A stretch of 64,000 bases of DNA from an uncultured delta proteobacterium (GTDB lineage Bacteria > Myxococcota_A > Polyangia > Polyangiales > Polyangiaceae). Both the position numbers and the translations under genes were made by a program. Positions 17,377 through 64,000 of the stretch are shown one piece after another. The stretch spans positions 832,001-896,000 of the forward strand of contig CAWJCS010000004.1 in the NCBI GenBank assembly GCA_963841435.1. Direction: 5' to 3'. Numbering within the stretch: the stretch's first letter is position 1; every line of letters begins with the position of its first letter. A model generated the notes under the pieces. The model had not been told where the DNA came from, searched no databases, and was given only the letters and a program-made list of their open reading frames with translations.

Positions 17377-18123
17377 TCAGTAGGTGCGGATGAGGGCGAC
17401 GAGACGGCCCTGAACCTTGACCTGCTCGGGGCCGCAGATGCGGGTCTCGTACTTGGGGTTGGCGGGTTCGAGGGCAATCGAGTTGCCGCGCCGGCGCAGA
17501 CGCTTCAGCGTCACCTCCTCGTTGTCGACGAGGGCGACGACGATCGCGCCGTTATCGGCATTGTCGGTGCGCTCGATGATCACCGTATCGCCGTCGAAGA
17601 TTCCGGCCTCGATCATCGAATCGCCTTCGACCTCGAGCGCGTAGTGCTCGTTGCGGGAGATCAGCTCCTGCGAGACATCGATACTCCTCGACTGGTCGCG
17701 CAGCGCCGTGATCGGCGTTCCGGCGGCGATCTTCCCGTACAGCGGCAAGGTGACGATGCCCCGCGGCGGCGCCGCTTCCGGTTCCGGCTCGGGCGAGCGG
17801 AAATCGTGGCGGATGACGTTCGACGGCAGCCGTTCCGAGGGCGGGAGAGCCCGGATGCCGCGGTTGCGGCAGAGGCCGGGCCTGTTGCCGGTTCGCTGCC
17901 GCCGATGTTGCTCGGCATGCGAATGATTTCGAGCGCGCGCGCCCGATGCGGCAGGCGGCGGATGAACCCCCGTTCCTCAAGGCCGGTGATCAGCCGATGG
18001 ATTCCCGACTTTGAGCGCAGCCCGAGCGCCTCCTTCATCTCGTCGAAGGAGGGTGGCACCCCAGCCTCCTGCAGAGCGCCGACTGATGAACATCAAGAGC
18101 TCATGCTGTTTGCGTGTGAGCAT
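17377..18123 (-). CDS. lexA: SOS repressor LexA (frameshifted)
   Basis: [61 protein letters not shown] cleavage site; GDSM; TLKR. Confidence 0.96.
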
Positions 18124-18208: not shown

Positions 18209-18248
18209 GAACAAAAACCAAACCGGGCGCAATGTTCTATTTTGGTTC
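18209..18248. promoter_or_regulatory. Two alphaproteobacterial LexA (SOS) boxes upstream of lexA
   Basis: GAAC-aaaaacc-AAAC at 18209-18223 (one mismatch) and perfect GTTC-tattttg-GTTC at 18234-18248. Confidence 0.88.
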
Positions 18249-23018: not shown

Positions 23019-24051
23019 GTGACGGATGCAAAGTCCGCGAAGGCAGCCGACAATCGCGCAACGCCCGCGGCGGGCACGGCACCGGCGTACGATCGCGACG
23101 AACTGCTCGGTTACTACCGGCAGATGCTGCTGATCCGCCGGTTCGAGGAAAAGGCCGGCCAGCTCTATGGCATGGGTCTGATCGCCGGCTTCTGCCATCT
23201 CTACATCGGCCAGGAGGCGGTGGTCGTCGGCCTGCAGGCCAATGCGACCGAGGCCGATTCCGTCATCACCACCTACCGCGATCACGGCCACATGCTCGCC
23301 ACCGGCATGGATGCCGAAGGGCGTCATGGCGGAACTGACCGGGCGCATCGACGGCTATTCGAAGGGCAAGGGCGGCTCGATGCACATGTTCAGCCGCGAG
23401 AAGAAGTTCTACGGCGGCCATGGCATCGTCGGCGCCTCGGTGCCGCTCGGCGCCGGACTCGCCTTCGCCCACAAGTATCGCGAGGACGGCGGGATCAACT
23501 TCTGCTACTTCGGCGACGGCGCCGCCAACCAGGGCCAGGTCTACGAAGCCTTCAACATGGCCTCGTTGTGGAAGCTGCCGGTGATCTTCGTCATCGAGAA
23601 CAACCGCTACGGCATGGGGACGTCGATCCAGCGAGCCTCGGCCTCGACCGAATTCTATCGGCGCGGCGAGGCGTTCGGCATCCCGGGCGTCATGGTCGAC
23701 GGCATGAACGTGCTGGAGGTGAAGAAGGCCGGCGCCGAGGTCGTCGCCCATGTCCGCGGCGGCAAGGGCCCATACGTCATGGAGCTGAGCACCTACCGCT
23801 ATCGCGGCCACTCGATGTCGGATCCGGCCAAGTACCGGACCAAGGAAGAGGTCTCGACGATGCGCAAGGAGCACGATCCGATCGATCGTCTCCGCCAGTT
23901 CATGCTGGACGAAGGGCTGGCCGACGATGCGGCGTTCAAGGAGATGGACCGGCAGACCAAGGACATCATCAACGAGGCGGCGGAATTCGCGCAGAAGAGC
24001 CCCGAGCCCGATCCGTCGGAGCTGTGGACGGATGTCCTGATCGAAGCCTAG
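23019..24051 (+). CDS. pdhA: Pyruvate dehydrogenase E1 alpha (frameshifted)
   Basis: LIRRFEEKAGQLYGMGLIAGFCHLYIGQEA; GDGAANQGQ; YRYRGHSMSDPAKYR. Confidence 0.96.
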
Positions 24052-24097
24052 TCGCCGAAAAGTAAAGTCGCGGGTCGTCGCTGAGGGAGGATGCCTG

Positions 24098-25479
<1,382 letters not shown>

Positions 25480-25496
25480 ACGAGGGAGCGGATCCC

Positions 25497-28300
<2,804 letters not shown>

Positions 28301-33141: not shown

Positions 33142-33600
33142 TTATTTGTAATAACCGACGCCGCACACCTGGTCGCCGATTTTGGTGATGTAGGACTCTT
33201 TCGGCACCGGTGTGGTCTCACCCGGTTTCGCAATCATGTAAGACGCTTCCGAAAGCTTTCCTTCCTGGGCGATTTTGTAGAATTCCTCGCCGTAAGCCTT
33301 GCCGGTCGGGTCTTTACGATCCTTCATGCTCTGTCCGACCAGAGAAGCGTTGGCGCCGTGCGCCGAAAAGTTGCCGTCCGGACCGCCGCAAAACGGATAG
33401 AGATCCTTCTCCTTGAACTTGCCGGCCGTGATCTCCTCCAACGTCTTTGCCTTGTTGGCCTTCATGTCGGCAACGACTTTCTCCAGCATGGCTTTCGCTT
33501 CCGCCGCCGTTCCGGCTTGCTGCGCCGACGCCGGCGTGACCGCAAACATCAGAAGTGCGAGCACGAGCATCGACACCCATCGCAAGAGCTTCATGTCCAT
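33142..33600 (-). CDS. Secreted single Cache-domain protein
   Basis: Signal peptide; GTAAEAKAMLEK; KDLYPFC; KDPTGK; PKESYI...CGVGYYK; RBS GGAGGA. Confidence 0.82.
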   Translation of the reverse strand: MDMKLLRWVSMLVLALLMFAVTPASAQQAGTAAEAKAMLEKVVADMKANKAKTLEEITAGKFKEKDLYPFCGGPDGNFSAHGANASLVGQSMKDRKDPTGKAYGEEFYKIAQEGKLSEASYMIAKPGETTPVPKESYITKIGDQVCGVGYYK

Positions 33601-33810
33601 TCCTCCATATCGTTGGTTTCGTAAGACTTGTGCGCAATCGTGTACTGTCTGCGGGAGCCGAGGGCAAGTCCTCCATACCACCTAATGGGGAATGCCGAGG
33701 GATCCTTAAGAGCATACGCTGATGCCCGAACGGCGCCGGGCTGCGCGAGCCGAAATTGCCCGGTCCGCTTGGAGCATGTCGTTGCCCGTAGCGCGGCCGG
33801 GGAGCGGGAG

Positions 33811-33886
<76 letters not shown>

Positions 33887-33937
33887 ATCGCCGCGGGTGG
33901 GGGCGAGGGGCGATCCGACCCGGCCCACGATGCGCCG

Positions 33938-33967
33938 CTTATAACAAGCCGGGCGGCTTTGTGTCCA
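33938..33967 (-). promoter_or_regulatory. Putative sigma70 promoter of tRNA-Phe
   Basis: Minus strand TGGACA...TGTTATAAG about 50 nt upstream of the tRNA. Confidence 0.5.
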
Positions 33968-34114
33968 GCCGCCCCGGCCGCGGCGCGGTCGGCGGCGGTC
34001 GGTGAGCACACCGGTCCGGCCGCGTTGCCTTTTCATGAGAGGACGAGTGCCTTTCGGGCGGTTCGAGATCCGGAGTTTAGGCCTAACCCATTGATGACAA
34101 GCCATACCCGCGAA

Positions 34115-34274
34115 GTGCGCGGCGAAAATGTCGTCATTCGTCGTCATTTGTCGGCAAACGTCGTCATCGGCAGCCGGTGCGCGGCGAAAATGTCGTCATC
34201 GAGGCACCCACCGCGGCCCACAATGTCGTCATTCGTTCGTCAAATGTCGTCATGTGTCGGCACGATGTCGTCAT
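34115..34274. repeat. Helically phased array of GTCG(T/G)CA heptamers
   Basis: Copies start at 34130, 34140, 34150, 34160, 34192, 34225, 34236 (TTCGTCA), 34246, 34256, 34267; includes a 23-bp perfect duplicate at 34115-34137 and 34177-34199. Confidence 0.9.
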
Positions 34275-34330
34275 ACCGGTTCGCCCGCCTGGGATCCGAA
34301 TCGCCGGACGATTGCTGCGCGCCGGGAATG

Positions 34331-34371
34331 GAACATAATACGAACATACGCGAAGCCGCGGCGCCGGTCAA
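34331..34371 (-). promoter_or_regulatory. Sigma70-type promoter overlapped by a perfect LexA box
   Basis: Minus strand TTGACC-N17-TATGTT; GAAC-ataatac-GAAC at 34331-34345 overlaps -10/+1. Confidence 0.8.
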
Positions 34372-34406
34372 CGCCCCCGCCCGACTGCGCGGAATCGCCA
34401 AGACAG

Positions 34407-34859
34407 TTACTTGTCGAAGGTCGTCAGGGGCGCCCCGTCGTCGGCGACGAACACGGCCAACAGGCTCGCCGGCTCGGTCGCACTCGCGTTCTCGCTGACG
34501 AGGTGCTCGCTGCCCGGCGGCTCGAAGAAGCTCTCGCCGGCGCTATAGACCCGGGCCGGTCCGGTCGCGGAGTTTTCCGAGCGAATTGTTCCCGAGAGCA
34601 CGTAGGCGAATACGCTTCCGGCGTGGTGGTGCGCGCTGGAGTGTCCGCCGGGGCCATAGGTGACGACGAGTGCTGTGAGGGTCTTGCCCGGAACGTTCGG
34701 CAGTTTCTCCGCGAATGCCTGCTTCACCTCGGCGCCCGCGCCCTCGGCGGATGCGCTCGACGTGGGGCCGGCCAACACTATTCCGGCCAGTATCACACCG
34801 GTCGACAGCAACGCCGCCGCAGCCGGCAAACGGCGGTGCGTCCGATACCCTTGTCTCAT
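34407..34859 (-). CDS. Secreted cupin-domain protein
   Basis: Signal-like N-terminus; HHHAGSVFAYVLSG; GESFFEPPGSEH. Confidence 0.85.
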   Translation of the reverse strand: MRQGYRTHRRLPAAAALLSTGVILAGIVLAGPTSSASAEGAGAEVKQAFAEKLPNVPGKTLTALVVTYGPGGHSSAHHHAGSVFAYVLSGTIRSENSATGPARVYSAGESFFEPPGSEHLVSENASATEPASLLAVFVADDGAPLTTFDK

Positions 34860-35346
34860 CATTGCGCCCCCCGTTGAGCCTCTTCGGGCGCTCGCGTGGG
34901 CAGGTGCCGGCGGATGCACCGAGCGGAAGCCGATGGCGATCCGGTTCCAGGCATTGATGGTGCCGATGAGCACCGTCAGCTTGACCAGCTCGTCCTCCGC
35001 GAAGTGCCGGCGCGACCTCCTCGAAGACGGCATCCGGGGCGTGCGTCTCGGAGATCAGGGTGAGTGCTTCCGTCCAGGCCAGGGCCGCCCGCTCGCGCTC
35101 GCTGTAGAGCGGCGATTCTCGCCAGGCGTCGAGCAGGTACAGGCGTTCCTCCGTCTCGCCGCGGGCGCGGGCGTCGCGCGTATGCATCTGGATGCAGAAG
35201 GCGCAGCCGTTGATCTGCGACGCGCGCGTCTTCACCAGCTCGATGAGCGACGATTCCAGCCCGCAGTTGCGCACGTGGTTTTCGAGCGCGCCCATCGCCT
35301 TCATCGTCTCCGGCGCCGCCTGATAGGGGTTCAGTCTCGGTTGCAT
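34860..35346 (-). CDS. Carboxymuconolactone decarboxylase/AhpD family protein (frameshifted; 3' end uncertain)
   Basis: ELVKTRASQINGCAFC; AWRESPLYSERERAALAWTE; INAWNRIAI. Confidence 0.88.
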
Positions 35347-35400: not shown

Positions 35401-38220
35401 CTAATGCGCGGAGCCCCAGTCGCGGCCGGTGCCGGTGTCGACGACGAGCGGGACGGAGAGGTCGGCGACCGACTGCATCGTCCGCACCACTACCTCGCGG
35501 GTCGGCTCGACCTCGGCGTCCGCCACCTCGAAGATCAGCTCGTCATGCACCTGCAAGAGCATTTTTGCAGCGAGCCCGGCCGCTTCGAGCGCCGCCGGCA
35601 GCCGGATCATCGCCCGCTTGATGATATCGGCGGCGCCGCCCTGGATCGGCGCGTTGATCGCCGCCCGTTCGGCAAACGCCGCGCGCCGCCGGGTTCTTGT
35701 CGGCGATCCCCTTGCGTATGGCAGCGCCGGCCGAACAGCGTCGTCACGAACCCCTTCGTCCGGGCGTCGCGCTTGGTCCGTTCCATGTAATCGCGGATGC
35801 CGGGGTAGCGGGCGAAGTAGGCGTCGATGTAGGCGCCGGCTTCGCCGCGGCCGATGCCGAGCTGGCGGGCGAGGCCGAAGGCGGAGATGCCGTAGATGAT
35901 GCCGAAGTTGATCGCCTTCGCCTTCCTGCGGACGAACGGGTCCATGCCCTCGATCGGCACGCCGAACACCTGGCTCGCCGTCATCGCGTGGATGTCGTGG
36001 CCGTCGCGGAAGGCGTCCTTGAGCTGGCCGATGTCGGCGACGTGGGCGAGCAGCCGCAGCTCGATCTGCGAATAGTCGGCACTCAGCAGGACGTGCCCGG
36101 CGGGGCGACGAAGGCACTGCGGATCTTCCGTCCCTCCTCGGTGCGGACGGGGATGTTCTGCAGGTTCGGATCGGACGACGACAGCCGGCCGGTCGACGCC
36201 ACGGCCTGCTGATAGGAGGTGTGGACGCGGCCCGTTTGCGGGTCGATCTGGCCGATCAGCGCATCGGCGTAGGTGCGTCTTCAGCTTGGCGAGCTGCCGC
36301 CAGTCGAGCACCTTGGCCGGCAGCGGCTGGCCTTCGAGCGCCAGCAGTTCGAGGATATCGGCGCCGGTGGCATAGGCGCCCGTCTTGCCCTTCCGGCCGA
36401 CGCCGAGGCCCATCTCGTCGAACAGCACCTCGCCCAGCTGCTTCGGCGAGCCGATGTTGAAAGGACGGCCGGCAAGGCCGTAGATCTCGCGTTCCAGATC
36501 GCCGAGGCGCGCGGCGAAGTCCTCGCTCAGGCGGTGCAGCGCGTCCCGATCGACGAGGATGCCGTGCGCGCTCCATCGCCGCCAGCACCGGCACCAGCGG
36601 CCGCTCCAGCGTCTCGTAGACGGTGACCAGCCGCTCCGCCAGCAGCCGCGGCTTGAGGGCGGCGTGCAGTGCGAGCGTCACCTCGGCGTCCTCGGCGGCA
36701 TAGGCGAGGGCCCGGTCGGGCGGCACCCGGTCGAAGCGGAGCTGCGCCTTGCCGGTGCCGGCGACTTCCGCGTAGCTGATCGTCGTCCGGCCGAGATGCA
36801 GGGATGCCAGCTCGTCTATGCCGTGGCCGTGCAGGCCGCCTTCGAGCACGTAGGACAGCAGCATGGTGTCGTCGAACGGCGCGAGCGCGATGCCGTGGCC
36901 GGCGAAGACATGGGCGTCGAACTTGATGTCGTGGCCGATCTTGAGGACCGAGTGCGTCTTCCAGCAGCGGCTTCAGCAGCTGCAGCGCCCGATCCGGCGT
37001 CGAGCTGCGGCAGGACGCGAGCGCCGCCGGCATCGGTGTGGGCGAGCGGGATGTAGCACGCCTCGCCGGCAGCAATCGCCAGCGACACGCCGACGAGCGG
37101 CCGCCGTAAGCGGGTCGCGCGCCGTCGTCTCGGTCTCGACGGCGACGCATCCTGCCTCGTGCGCGCGGGCGATCAAGAGGGCGAGTTGGGCCTCCTCGGT
37201 GACGAGCGCGTAGGCGGCCGGAGCGGCGGGCGCCGGCGTCGGCGATGTCGAGGGCGAGCTGGGCCTGCGCCGCCTTCGCCGGCGTGCGACGGCGCCGGGA
37301 TCGCCGCAGGTCGAGGCGGGCGATCAGCGAGCGGAACGCCTGCGCCTGCAAGAACGCCTTCAGCGCCGCGCGGTCCGGCTCGCGCTTGGCCAGCGCCGAA
37401 AGCGGCTCCGGCACCGCCACGTCGTCGGCGAGCGTCACCAGCCGCTTCGACAGCCGCGCGTTCTCGGCGTGCGCGATCAGCGCCTCGCGCCGCTTCGGCT
37501 GAGCGATCGAGCCGGCGCCGGCGAGCAGCGTCTCCAGATCGCCGAACTCGCGGATGAGCTGGGCGGCGGTCTTGACGCCGATGCCGGGGACGCCGGGTAC
37601 GTTGTCGGTCGGATCGCCGGCGAGCGCCTGCACGTCGATGACCTTCTCCGGGCCGACACCGAACTTCTCCTCCACCTCGGCGGCGCCGATCGCCCGGTTG
37701 TTGACCGGGTCCCACATGCCGACGCCGTCGCCGACGAGCTGCATCAGGTCCTTGTCGGACGAGACGATGGTCACCTCGGCGCCGGCCTCGCGGGCGAGGC
37801 GCGCGTATGTCGCGATCAGGTCGTCCGCCTCGAAGCCTTCGGATTCGACGCAGGCGACGTTGAAGGCGCGCACCGCCTCGCGGATCAGCGGGAACTGCGG
37901 CACCAGCGCGTCCGGCGGCTCCGGCACGGTTGGCCTTGTAGGCGGGATAGAGGTCGTCGCGGAAGGTGCGACGGGCGGCATCGAAGACGACGGCGATGTG
38001 ATCGGCGTCGGTCTCCTTGAGGAGCTTGATCAGCATCGTGGTGAAGCCGAAGACGGCGTTGACCGGCGTGCCGTCCGGCCGGGTCATCGGCGGCAGCTTG
38101 TGGAAGGCGCGGAAGATGAAGCCCGAGCCGTCGACCAGATAGACGTGGCGAGGTGCGGGGCGGGAAGGGGCCGCCGACGGCTCGGCCGCCGGCGCGGGCC
38201 GGCGGCGGTGCTTCGGCGTC
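35401..38220 (-). CDS. polA: DNA polymerase I (multiple frameshifts; start approximate)
   Basis: [62 protein letters not shown]. Confidence 0.95.
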
Positions 38221-62040: not shown

Positions 62041-64000
62041 ATGAGATCACTCGCCTCGCCACCAGCGCAGGGGCTCTACGATCCGACGCCAGGAGCACGA
62101 CGCCTGCGGCATCGGCTTCCTCGCCCATATCAAGAACCGCAAGAGCCACGAGATCATCGAGCAAGGGCTGAGCATCCTCTGCAATCTCGAGCATCGCGGC
62201 GCGGTCGGCGCCGACCCGCTGGCCGGTGACGGCGCCGGCATCCTGATCCAGGTGCCGGATGCGTTTTTCCGCGAGGAGTGCGACCGCCTGGGCTTCGCCC
62301 TGCCGCCGTTCGAGCAGTACGCCGTCGGCATGGTCTTCCTGCCGCGCGATCCCGGCACCCGGCAGAAATGCATCGACGCCTTCTATCGGGTCGTCCCGGA
62401 GGAGGGGCAGATCCTCCTCGGCTGGCGCGACGTGCCGACCGACAACTCGCGTCCTGGGCTTCAGCGTCAAGCCGATCGAGCCGATCATCCGCCAGGTGTT
62501 CATCAAGCGCGGGCCGCGCACCGCTCGACCGACGCCTTCCAGCGCAAGCTGTTCGTCATCCGCAAGCAGGTGCATCACGCCGTCTGGGGCGAAGACCTGC
62601 CGGACGAGGAGCAGTTCTACATCTGCTCGCTGTCGCCGCGGACGATCGTCTACAAGGGGATGATCCTCGCCGGCAACCTGTCGACCTATTACCTCGACCT
62701 GCAGGCGCCGACGCTGGTCTCGGCGCTGGCGCTGGTGCATCAGCGGTTCTCCACCAACACCTTTCCGTCGTGGAAGCTGGCGCATCCGTTCCGCTACCTC
62801 TGCCACAACGGCGAGATCAACACGCTGCGCGGCAACATCAACTGGATGCTGGCGCGCCGCCATCCGATGAAGTCGGACCTGCTCGAAGGATGATCTGCAG
62901 AAGCTGTGGCCCTTGATCGGCGACGGCGCTTCGGACTCGGCGACGTTCGACAACGCGCTCGAGCTGCTCTTGGCCGGCGGCTACTCGCTGCCGCACGCGA
63001 TGATGATGATGGTTCCCGAGGCGTGGGACGACAATCCGCTGATGGACGAGGGGCGGCGCGCCTTCTACGAGTATCACGCGGCGCTGATGGAGCCGTGGGA
63101 CGGCCCGGCGGCGCTGGCGTTTACCGACGGCCGGCTGATCGGCGCCACCCTCGACCGCAACGGGCTGCGGCCGGCCCGCTACGTCATCACCGAGGACGAC
63201 CTCTGCGTGATGTCGTCGGAGGCGGGCGTCCTCAAGATCCCCGAGGACAAGATCGTCAAGAAGTGGCGATTGCAGCCGGGCAAGATGTTCCTGATCGACC
63301 TGGAGCAGGGTCGGATCATCGACGATGCCGAGCTCAAGGAGCAGCTCGCCTCGGCCAGGCCGTACCAGCAGTGGCTGGACGCGACCCAAATCCGCGTCGA
63401 GCAGCTGCCGCCCGAGGTCGGCCCGATGGCGCCCGATCCGCAGACGCTGCTCGACCGGCAGCAGGCGTTCGGCTACACGCAGGAAGACATCCGCTTCTTC
63501 CTGCAGCCGATGGGGCTGACCGGCGAGGATCCGGTCGGCTCGATGGGCCGCGACATTCCGATCGCCGTCCTCTCCGACCGGCCGAAGATGCTCTACGACT
63601 ACTTCAAGCAGTGCTTCGCCCAGGTCACCAACCCGCCGATCGATCCGATCCGCGAGGAGCTGGTGATGTCGCTGGTCTCCCTGATCGGTCCGCGGCCCAA
63701 CCTGCTCGCGCCGCAAGGGGCGGCCGGGCACAAGCGGCTCGAGGTGCGGACGCCGATCCTCTCCAACGTCGATCTCGAGCGCATCCGCCGCATCGAGAAC
63801 CACGTCGACCACGCGTTCCGCACCTACACCCTCGACATCACCTTTCCGGCGGCGGCCGGGCGCTGCGGGGATGGAGGACGCCCTCGATCGGCTGTTCGCC
63901 GTCGCCGCCGACGCGGTCGAGGACGGCTACAACATCATCATCCTGTCCGACCGCGCCATCGCCGCCGACCGCATCGCCATTCCGGCACTGCTGGCGACGG
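62041..64000 (+). CDS. gltB: Glutamate synthase large subunit (frameshifted; runs off window)
   Basis: EHDACGIGF; LEHRGAVGADP; HQRFSTNTFPSW; HNGEINT; EPWDGPA; FAQVTNPPIDPIRE. Confidence 0.96.

Follow-up and report, generated by a model that had tools for sequence, protein, structure and literature searches.

In phage lambda, the packaging site cosB combines R sites for gpNu1 with a site, I1, for integration host factor (IHF). The BIME-1/RIP elements of Escherichia coli and the Correia elements of Neisseria are dispersed, gene-less intergenic repeats with a central IHF site and in some cases promoters, and their building blocks are palindromic units or terminal inverted repeats. For SF6, PMC4737164 describes a G1P protein that displays its helix-turn-helix (HTH) motifs in a ring. 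With phage satellites and lateral transduction comes the concept that a small terminase (TerS) and its site respond together to SOS induction and that packaging can begin at sites in the chromosome; PMC8575950, PMC10996546, and PMC12597102 are papers on this topic. GTTCN7GTTC is stated to be the SOS box of Caulobacter in PMC6237742. Here, we describe a repeat array in a 64,000-nucleotide (nt) stretch of DNA, referred to as the window (C4:832001-896000, where C4 is contig CAWJCS010000004.1), that lies behind a LexA-type promoter and contains no recognizable gene. Judged by its sequence, the array is a member of a dispersed, mostly gene-less family of elements in Rhodospirillales-like alphaproteobacteria. 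We favor, with confidence that reaches about halfway, a reading in which it is the gene-less copy of a module, namely, an SOS promoter plus a pac- or cosB-like recognition array for a TerS-like protein that would be encoded elsewhere.

Feature coordinates are positions in the window, and the promoter, box, array, and downstream tRNA-Phe gene are all on the minus strand. The core of the locus, together with the box at lexA, reads as follows.
34366 to 34371, minus strand: −35 hexamer TTGACC, from sequence reading and a promoter scan
34343 to 34348, minus strand: −10 hexamer TATGTT, from the promoter scan, with a 17-nt spacer to the −35 hexamer
34331 to 34345, minus strand: LexA-type box GTTCGTATTATGTTC, a perfect GTTC-N7-GTTC that overlaps the −10 hexamer and the inferred start near 34336
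34225 to 34274, minus strand: iteron cluster 1, with exact ATGACGAC at 34274, 34253, and 34232 interleaved with GTGCCGAC (34263) and TTGACGAA (34243)
34177 to 34199, minus strand: single iteron inside the first copy of the 23-mer ATGACGACATTTTCGCCGCGCAC
34115 to 34167, minus strand: iteron cluster 2, with ATGACGAC at 34167, 34147, and 34137 and TTGCCGAC at 34157, followed by the second copy of the 23-mer
34084 to 34095, minus strand: predicted IHF site ATCAATGGGTTA, matching the consensus [AT]TCAA-N4-TT[AG] and oriented to the iterons as in the rest of the family
18234 to 18248, plus strand: box GTTCTATTTTGGTTC, which precedes the frameshifted lexA of the window (17377-18123, minus strand) by about 110 nt

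An earlier note had picked a promoter, a LexA-type box, and a repeat array without a gene out of this window, and all three are real. TTGACC-N17-TATGTT is the single sigma-70-like site in 33500-34700 (9 of 12 matches; shuffles expect 0.3), the perfect box lies over the −10 element and start as had been claimed (34345-34331), and the lexA gene of the same DNA does use the same box motif (18234-18248). Bare GTTC-N7-GTTC occurs four times in the window against 1.55 expected, and at least four copies were found in 8 of 100 shuffles, such that the count is not significant alone. The weight of the array-promoter box comes from its A/T-rich spacer, its overlap with the −10 element, the same motif at lexA, and its recurrence at homologous arrays. 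Among the 178 perfect boxes in the 7.78-Mb assembly, six have at least five A/T in the spacer, and two of those six are the array-promoter box and the box upstream of the window's lexA. We conclude that the array promoter appears to be of the LexA-regulated type, as indicated by box form, core-promoter overlap, and the motif at lexA, and that it is predicted to bind LexA.

Downstream of the promoter, the repeats seen in the earlier note were confirmed. The window contains 13 copies of ATGACGAC where 2.35 are expected (none of 100 shuffles had as many), and seven of them are on the minus strand between 34274 and 34130, starting at 34274, 34253, 34232, 34199, 34167, 34147, and 34137 with start-to-start distances of 21, 21, 33, 32, 20, and 10 nt. 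Three extra copies with two mismatches occupy 10- to 11-nt gaps, giving ten iterons in total (seven exact and three degenerate), and the 23-mer ATGACGACATTTTCGCCGCGCAC is exactly duplicated. Within 34147-34084, an iteron pair, ATGACGACgaATGACGACATT, is followed after 32 nt by ATCAATGGGTTA, which is the layout of the junction between gene end and IHF site in the complete modules described below, and the pair itself matches the one at the 3′ end of terS-like genes elsewhere. The consensus used is that of E. coli IHF (WATCAANNNNTTR). No codon-position GC signal was detected in 34340-33900, and six-frame translation gave only short unconserved open reading frames (ORFs), which bears out the claim that no recognizable protein gene lies between the promoter and tRNA-Phe. 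The window keeps the LexA-type promoter, ten iterons, and the IHF site of a module without the module's ORF.

The array has many relatives. An initial scan for three consecutive ATGACGAC gave mainly coding sequence or simple tandem repeats, and a scan for ATGACGACAT-N9-13-ATGACGACAT with one genome per species returned 67 loci. Several noncoding arrays per genome were found in Defluviicoccus sp. SSA4, Defluviicoccus vanus, a Rhodospirillaceae metagenome-assembled genome (MAG), a Rhodospirillales MAG, and a Thalassospiraceae MAG. The iteron-pair pattern TGACGAC-N2-3-WTGACGAC matched 77, 9, 57, 32, and 34 times in those five genomes, while the reversed control pattern gave 0 in all of them; of 150 further members of the class, sampled evenly, seven had one or two matches and none had three or more. 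Each of the five iteron-rich genomes carries about 7 to 20 element loci, most of them gene-less.

Family anatomy was read from 68 loci, the window included, drawn from six sources (the window and the five genomes). The loci carry direct (A/T/G)GACGAC iterons whose start-to-start distances fall into classes of 10 to 12 (243 cases), 20 to 23 (73), 32 to 33 (14), 43 to 47 (9), 54 to 56 (14), 64 to 65 (5), 75 to 77 (15), 85 to 87 (4), and 98 nt (3), such that a phasing of about 11 bp is kept across nonrepeat spacers. The IHF consensus occurs in the forward orientation at 49 of the 68 loci and in the reverse orientation at 1. In each copy read, a promoter-like element stands upstream and points into the iterons. 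We conclude that the phasing and the oriented IHF consensus together probably mark a protein-DNA assembly, not an RNA.

That conclusion bears on the proposal in the earlier note of a repeat-containing noncoding RNA (ncRNA). The Rfam scan that the note had called for was run with the covariance models of Rfam 15 and matched only tRNA, both in the window (E values up to 1) and in 12 homologous loci (0.1); RNA folds were no better than those of shuffled sequences (z scores of −1.26 and +0.32), and the leaders differ between copies. On these grounds a structured ncRNA was rejected. There is still the alternative that an SOS-induced regulatory RNA offers 7 to 12 (A/U)UGACGAC repeats as a sponge for an RNA-binding protein or for a small RNA (sRNA) or mRNA, with the DNA features being secondary. 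The fixed orientation of the promoter-like element into the array in every copy examined and the lack of a conserved ORF agree with a sponge, as does an inverted iteron pair followed by a T-run in SSA4, which looks like an intrinsic terminator placed behind the first cluster of iterons. The inverted pair, however, is missing from the window and from other lineages, there is neither a fold signal nor an Rfam family nor conservation of the leaders, and an RNA model predicts neither an 11-bp phasing that holds across nonrepeat spacers out to about 100 bp nor an oriented IHF consensus with a variable center. We consider an RNA sponge distinctly unlikely.

The protein that might bind the iterons was sought among neighboring genes. 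A Pfam scan of 73 flanking ORFs returned three Terminase_2 matches (E values of 3e-12 to 4e-9). The three ORFs all belong to the Thalassospiraceae MAG, and each is flanked by a GTTC-N7-GTTC box on one side and an array on the other. A TerS-like gene is present in all five iteron-rich genomes (eight PF03592 matches above the cutoff), in D. vanus at C1:1969806-1970219 (genome G053), compared with 1 of 14 control genomes, 7 of 150 members of the class sampled in a protein search, and 1 of 5 relatives of the window. A profile-guided scan found 68 loci that encode TerS-like relatives, all in Rhodospirillales-like records. At 9 of these 68 gene loci (six MAGs), where the gene encodes about 150 amino acids, at least seven phased GACGAC start at or just before the stop codon, whereas no locus has seven on the other strand, and an IHF site accompanies the gene-end array at 7 of the 9. 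A perfect GTTC-N7-GTTC on the same strand just upstream of the gene was present at 14 of 64 loci but at none of 61 and none of 67 in the two control windows.

The complete module has the following order: LexA box and promoter, TerS-like gene (about 145 to 190 amino acids [aa]), two iterons over the 3′ end of the gene, IHF site, and 8 to 10 further (A/T/G)GACGAC iterons about 11 bp apart. The last codons of the gene (..MTTNDDIS..) are themselves the two iterons, and the IHF site follows about 30 nt on. The protein is matched by PHROG 51 (terminase small subunit; E value of 1e-15) and by nothing in NCBIfam. Its AlphaFold model is all-helical, with five helices and a pLDDT above 83 over residues 31 to 131, and the top eight Foldseek matches of the model are small terminases, the best being the SF6 DNA-binding domain 4zc3 (TM score of 0.89; root mean square deviation of 1.0 Å). 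As modeled, the TerS-like protein would consist of an N-terminal HTH DNA-binding domain and a helical oligomerization region of the small-terminase type, with a fold nearest to the DNA-binding domain of SF6/SPP1 G1P.

Two observations on TerS-like genes stand beside these counts. A complete box/terS-like/array module lies upstream of the gene for class II DAHP synthase in several MAGs (L441, L444, L450, L451, and L386), and because of that synteny, this copy of the module looks like a stably inherited chromosomal locus. Genome G064 (L427, L433, L435, and L436) contains nine copies of a protein of about 290 aa with a TerS-like N terminus, some preceded by GAACATAATGCGAAC and others by the palindrome TAGTCCTAGGACTA; these form another multicopy, possibly SOS-linked TerS-like family.

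LexA-type boxes recur at the arrays themselves. A box was scored when it had at most one mismatch and at least four A/T in the spacer and lay on the same strand no more than 200 nt upstream. By this definition, 17 of the 68 family loci have a box, compared with 0, 0, and 1 of 68 in three control windows, distributed as follows.
Window: 1 of 1 locus examined
Defluviicoccus sp. SSA4: 0 of 20
D. vanus: 6 of 9
Rhodospirillaceae MAG: 5 of 7
Rhodospirillales MAG: 1 of 15
Thalassospiraceae MAG: 4 of 16
Two of the box-bearing D. vanus loci came from a box search and are thus ascertainment biased, giving an unbiased D. vanus figure of 4 of 7. Perfect boxes occur at five D. vanus loci, and promoters there, such as TTGACT-N17-TATGTTCGCTTTATGTTC, closely resemble that of the window. 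The box form is that of the alphaproteobacterial SOS regulon, as at the window's lexA, but the unit that would be regulated is gene-less. According to PMC6237742, the mitomycin-induced sRNA genes of Caulobacter have no SOS box close to their start sites, and a noncoding unit with a LexA box would therefore be unusual in alphaproteobacteria. We conclude that the comparisons establish, at the level of sequence, the anatomy of the array and show that the family exists, that it is associated with LexA boxes, and that in other genomes it is physically coupled to TerS-like genes.

Two further motifs were noticed at family promoters and arrays. D. vanus loci L337 and L327 have GAAC-N7-GAAC with a G+C-rich spacer about 60 to 100 nt after the iterons, that is, LexA-type half-sites in the opposite orientation. 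Promoters of the gene-less arrays at SSA4 loci L340, L342, L343, L345, L347, L348, and L352 and those of the terS-like genes in L417 to L421 have in common an inverted motif, ATAGG...CCTAT, that is located between the −35 and −10 elements or behind them and that could be an operator for a further regulator.

One way in which these parts could work together is as a DNA site under SOS control. The iterons would be recognition sites for a TerS-like protein encoded elsewhere in the host genome; lying on one face of the helix, they could, with the help of an IHF bend, let the DNA wrap around a multimer, as at phage pac and cosB. After DNA damage, LexA would be cleaved and the promoter would fire through the array, and the resulting noncoding transcript, of about 200 to 400 nt, might open or remodel the protein-DNA complex. 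LexA binding, TerS-like binding, the transcript, and packaging or another downstream function are steps that we infer. The function could be initiation of packaging, interference with phage packaging, or that of a domesticated regulator with a noncoding regulon. Among the options in the earlier note, the nearest is a cis element of the loading-site kind, which agrees with the phasing of about 11 bp, the oriented IHF consensus, and the homologous arrays that abut a terS-like gene. Put in terms of what marks a small-terminase site, phased repeats with IHF are present in the window (phasing of about 11 bp; IHF consensus at 34095-34084), and a position within or beside a terS-like gene is seen for homologous arrays at 9 of the 68 gene loci and not for the window array. 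The note had also named, as grounds for refutation, relatives with a normal SOS gene here; this is borne out by half, in that a terS-like gene does stand between box and array in paralogous modules elsewhere, and no syntenic relative of this locus itself was found.

Several observations weigh against the reading as a TerS-recognition site. Gene-less copies each keep an inward-facing promoter, which a pure DNA-site model leaves unexplained. Neither a terS-like ORF nor a remnant was found in the window (the best tblastn match, with an E value of 0.009, was in an unrelated place), and no Terminase_2 gene was found in the window's assembly, which includes only about 100 kb of the true host's DNA. 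The Foldseek E values are weak (0.017 and above), and the model has no strands and no C-terminal beta-barrel. In the loci read, TerS-like genes have no large terminase next to them, their neighbors being genes for DAHP synthase, polA, a DUF4167-like protein, and a P-type ATPase, and the TerS-like protein may therefore have no part in packaging. Where a genome has a single terS-like gene and about 20 arrays, as SSA4 does, the gene lies away from any array, and direct coupling is therefore limited to the 9 of 68 gene loci. Finally, none of the 20 SSA4 copies has a LexA box, and SOS control is therefore not universal in the family.

Complete modules resemble lambda cosB and SPP1/SF6 pac (G1P) in having a gene of the small-terminase HTH type beside an array of repeated sites, an IHF site, and helical phasing. 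They differ from phage pac and cosB in that those read have no adjoining genes for large terminase, portal, or capsid and that the protein is shorter and, as modeled, all-helical; the arrays, moreover, occupy about 7 to 20 chromosomal loci, mostly gene-less and many under a LexA box. In concept only, the TerS homologue with a cognate site and an SOS link recalls SaPI/PICI-type satellites and the pseudo-pac sites of lateral transduction; unlike those satellites, the modules measure 0.3 to 0.9 kb and have no integrase, replication, or capsid-remodeling gene and no known helper phage, and several of them are host loci in synteny. A stronger form of the reading is a host-resident or minimal-satellite system, in which an SOS-controlled TerS-like protein and some 7 to 20 dispersed, promoter-equipped pac-like arrays would mark chromosomal loci, including the tRNA-Phe locus, for headful packaging of the phage or gene transfer agent (GTA) type after DNA damage and thus form a built-in lateral-transduction platform. 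We offer this form tentatively and think it, on balance, unlikely. The family also shares its dispersed, gene-less, intergenic, multicopy character and IHF site with BIME-1/RIP and Correia elements, but its units are direct 8-mers with a phasing of about 11 bp, and it is linked both to a TerS-like gene and to LexA boxes.

If the TerS-recognition reading is true, alphaproteobacterial LexA boxes control gene-less DNA elements and not only genes, and a phage small-terminase DNA-binding module has either been taken over as a stand-alone chromosomal system or parasitizes its host as one. Chromosomes could then carry many dedicated terminase-recognition arrays, which bears on gene mobilization after DNA damage. 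Even if the idea of packaging is wrong, the family offers a clean, abundant, and new target in its phased 8-mers, IHF site, and candidate binder; it is present in Defluviicoccus vanus strain Ben 114, for which a complete chromosome is on record. The system had been called undescribed in the earlier note, and we likewise found no description of it in Rfam or in the literature searched. Searches with sequence strings gave only primer-type matches among the papers listed, topical searches found no such element described, and a Caulobacter GTA/IHF paper proved unrelated to these elements.

Phased direct iterons combined with one inverted copy, a stretch rich in A/T, and a site for IHF are also the classic anatomy of origins and centromeres. 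Accordingly, the array layout invites the alternative that the array is a remnant or satellite of an iteron replicon or partition site (a Rep-bound oriV or a parC-like centromere) with the SOS promoter providing transcriptional activation. Iterons built on the same ATGACGACAT core do lie beside a Rep3 gene on small Psychrobacter plasmids, and these Rep3 origins share direct repeats and an inverted copy with the family, but their period is 22 bp rather than 10 to 11 bp and no Rep3 gene is present in four of the five iteron-rich genomes. In the fifth, Rep3_N lies on a separate contig, and a Rep3 initiator was rejected as the iteron binder. About 20 copies per chromosome with unrelated flanks do not fit origins or centromeres, and no rep or par gene was found beside any locus scanned. 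Descent from a replicon or partition site is thus so doubtful that we give it very little weight.

The genes that flank family loci are unrelated to each other, and for two of the D. vanus copies the orthologous locus in SSA4 is empty of the element. A dispersed, multicopy family with copies at nonorthologous places in two Defluviicoccus species, and with tRNA genes adjoining 4 of 68 loci, could be a nonautonomous mobile element that carries its own SOS switch and whose iterons bind a transposase or the arm-binding domain of an integrase. The earlier note had included a mobile element among its options; within the window's assembly, the array is single, so that multicopy status was not borne out there, although only about 100 kb of the host is represented. 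By eye, aligned copies showed neither terminal inverted repeats nor target site duplications, the iterons are direct rather than inverted at both sides, and no transposase or integrase is consistently nearby. Copies within one genome share motifs but differ in their linkers, which looks like selection acting on the sites rather than recent transposition, and the module that precedes the DAHP synthase gene is found in synteny in several MAGs. We regard mobility as highly improbable.

The window copy departs from the family layout in that all of its iterons lie upstream of the IHF site and its 23-mer is duplicated. This rearrangement, and the absence of syntenic relatives that carry the copy, would suit a decaying, functionless relic that has lost its gene and whose promoter and box persist by chance. 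Such decay sits poorly with a perfect box, an intact promoter, and seven exact iterons, and gene-less copies with promoters are the majority form in the five genomes. We think a relic improbable.

The surroundings of the array on the minus strand contain the following features.
34407 to 34862, minus strand: cupin gene, the upstream context, with its stop codon 35 nt before the −35 hexamer
33951 to 33974, minus strand: G+C-rich hairpin, terminator-like with a poor T tail
33938 to 33967, minus strand: putative promoter of the tRNA gene itself, TGGACA-N18-TATAAG, noted by eye and failing the promoter-scan criteria
33811 to 33886, minus strand: tRNA-Phe (GAA)
The tRNA gene was correctly placed by the earlier note, its 5′ end (33886) being 450 nt from the inferred start near 34336. 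The promoter might therefore serve either SOS-dependent read-through into tRNA-Phe, with just a weak hairpin in between, or a small protein, such as a leaderless 21-aa product (MFHSRRAAIVRRFGSQAGEPV) from an ATG at the inferred +1 (34336) or one of the short MTTF... ORFs of 34 to 36 aa. A second array-tRNA pair exists in L415, but most family members have no downstream tRNA, and tRNA-Phe has a plausible promoter of its own. The ORFs are not kept in homologous elements and show no codon-position GC signal, and short ORFs are unreliable here because the assembly has many frameshifts. Service to a small protein or to the tRNA is accordingly scarcely probable.

The DNA around the locus is itself compositionally foreign to its assembly. 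The last 100 kb or so of the contig (C4:810001-909933), in which the window lies, has a tetranucleotide profile unlike that of every other 10-kb window of the assembly. Its genes are alphaproteobacterial housekeeping genes (gltX, recR, lexA, pdh genes, lipA, polA, and gltB), many of them split by frameshifts, including polA (35401-38087), lexA (17377-18123), gltB (62045-63998), and pyruvate dehydrogenase (23182-26880), and the overlapping broken ORFs of these genes fit frequent indel errors or decay. The best match of the segment's polA is in a Reyranella MAG (70%), whereas the assembly's supposed genus relatives are without the region and have polA genes that are 46 to 55% identical. A second polA lies elsewhere on C4, and the segment carries a second, alphaproteobacterial housekeeping set (polA and lexA). 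We conclude that the segment is probably a chimeric assembly join, or else a very large foreign segment, and users of the assembly should treat it as probably chimeric. A near-identical box in the Reyranella MAG is followed by an SRAP/YedK gene, and a remnant of such a gene was looked for at the array locus; none was found.

Searches within the assembly tell little, since only about 100 kb of the true host's DNA is present; within that limit, the array occurs once. The locus DNA and its cupin and sCache neighbors were not found in 40 nominal relatives of the assembly, as is explained by the window being alien to the bulk genome. Neither tRNA-Phe nor an array was found downstream at any of 80 polA-anchored loci (0 of 80), none of 80 cupin-anchored metagenome loci had tRNA-Phe, an A/T-spacer box, or an array, the exact 23-mer had 0 matches in metagenome contigs, and the iteron-pair pattern was absent from the five relatives nearest to the window by polA. 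None of the public sequencing runs contains the stretch: the 24 listed entries each have just 0.05 to 0.06 of its sampled words, which we take to be tRNA.

Two minor observations concern DNA outside the segment. The bulk genome of the assembly has two full recA genes and a lexA gene of its own (C3:1236694-1237503, C3:439225-440007, and C6:391377-391571), none with GTTC-N7-GTTC upstream, and the bulk genome therefore uses a LexA motif other than that of the window's segment. On the chromosome of the myxobacterium Sorangium sp. So ce1128 (L064, 1490-1810), about 16 copies of GGATGACGACG with a period of 21 to 22 bp occupy a divergent intergenic region adjoining what appears by eye to be a PAAR-like gene, an interspersed style similar to that of the family that may be analogous only.

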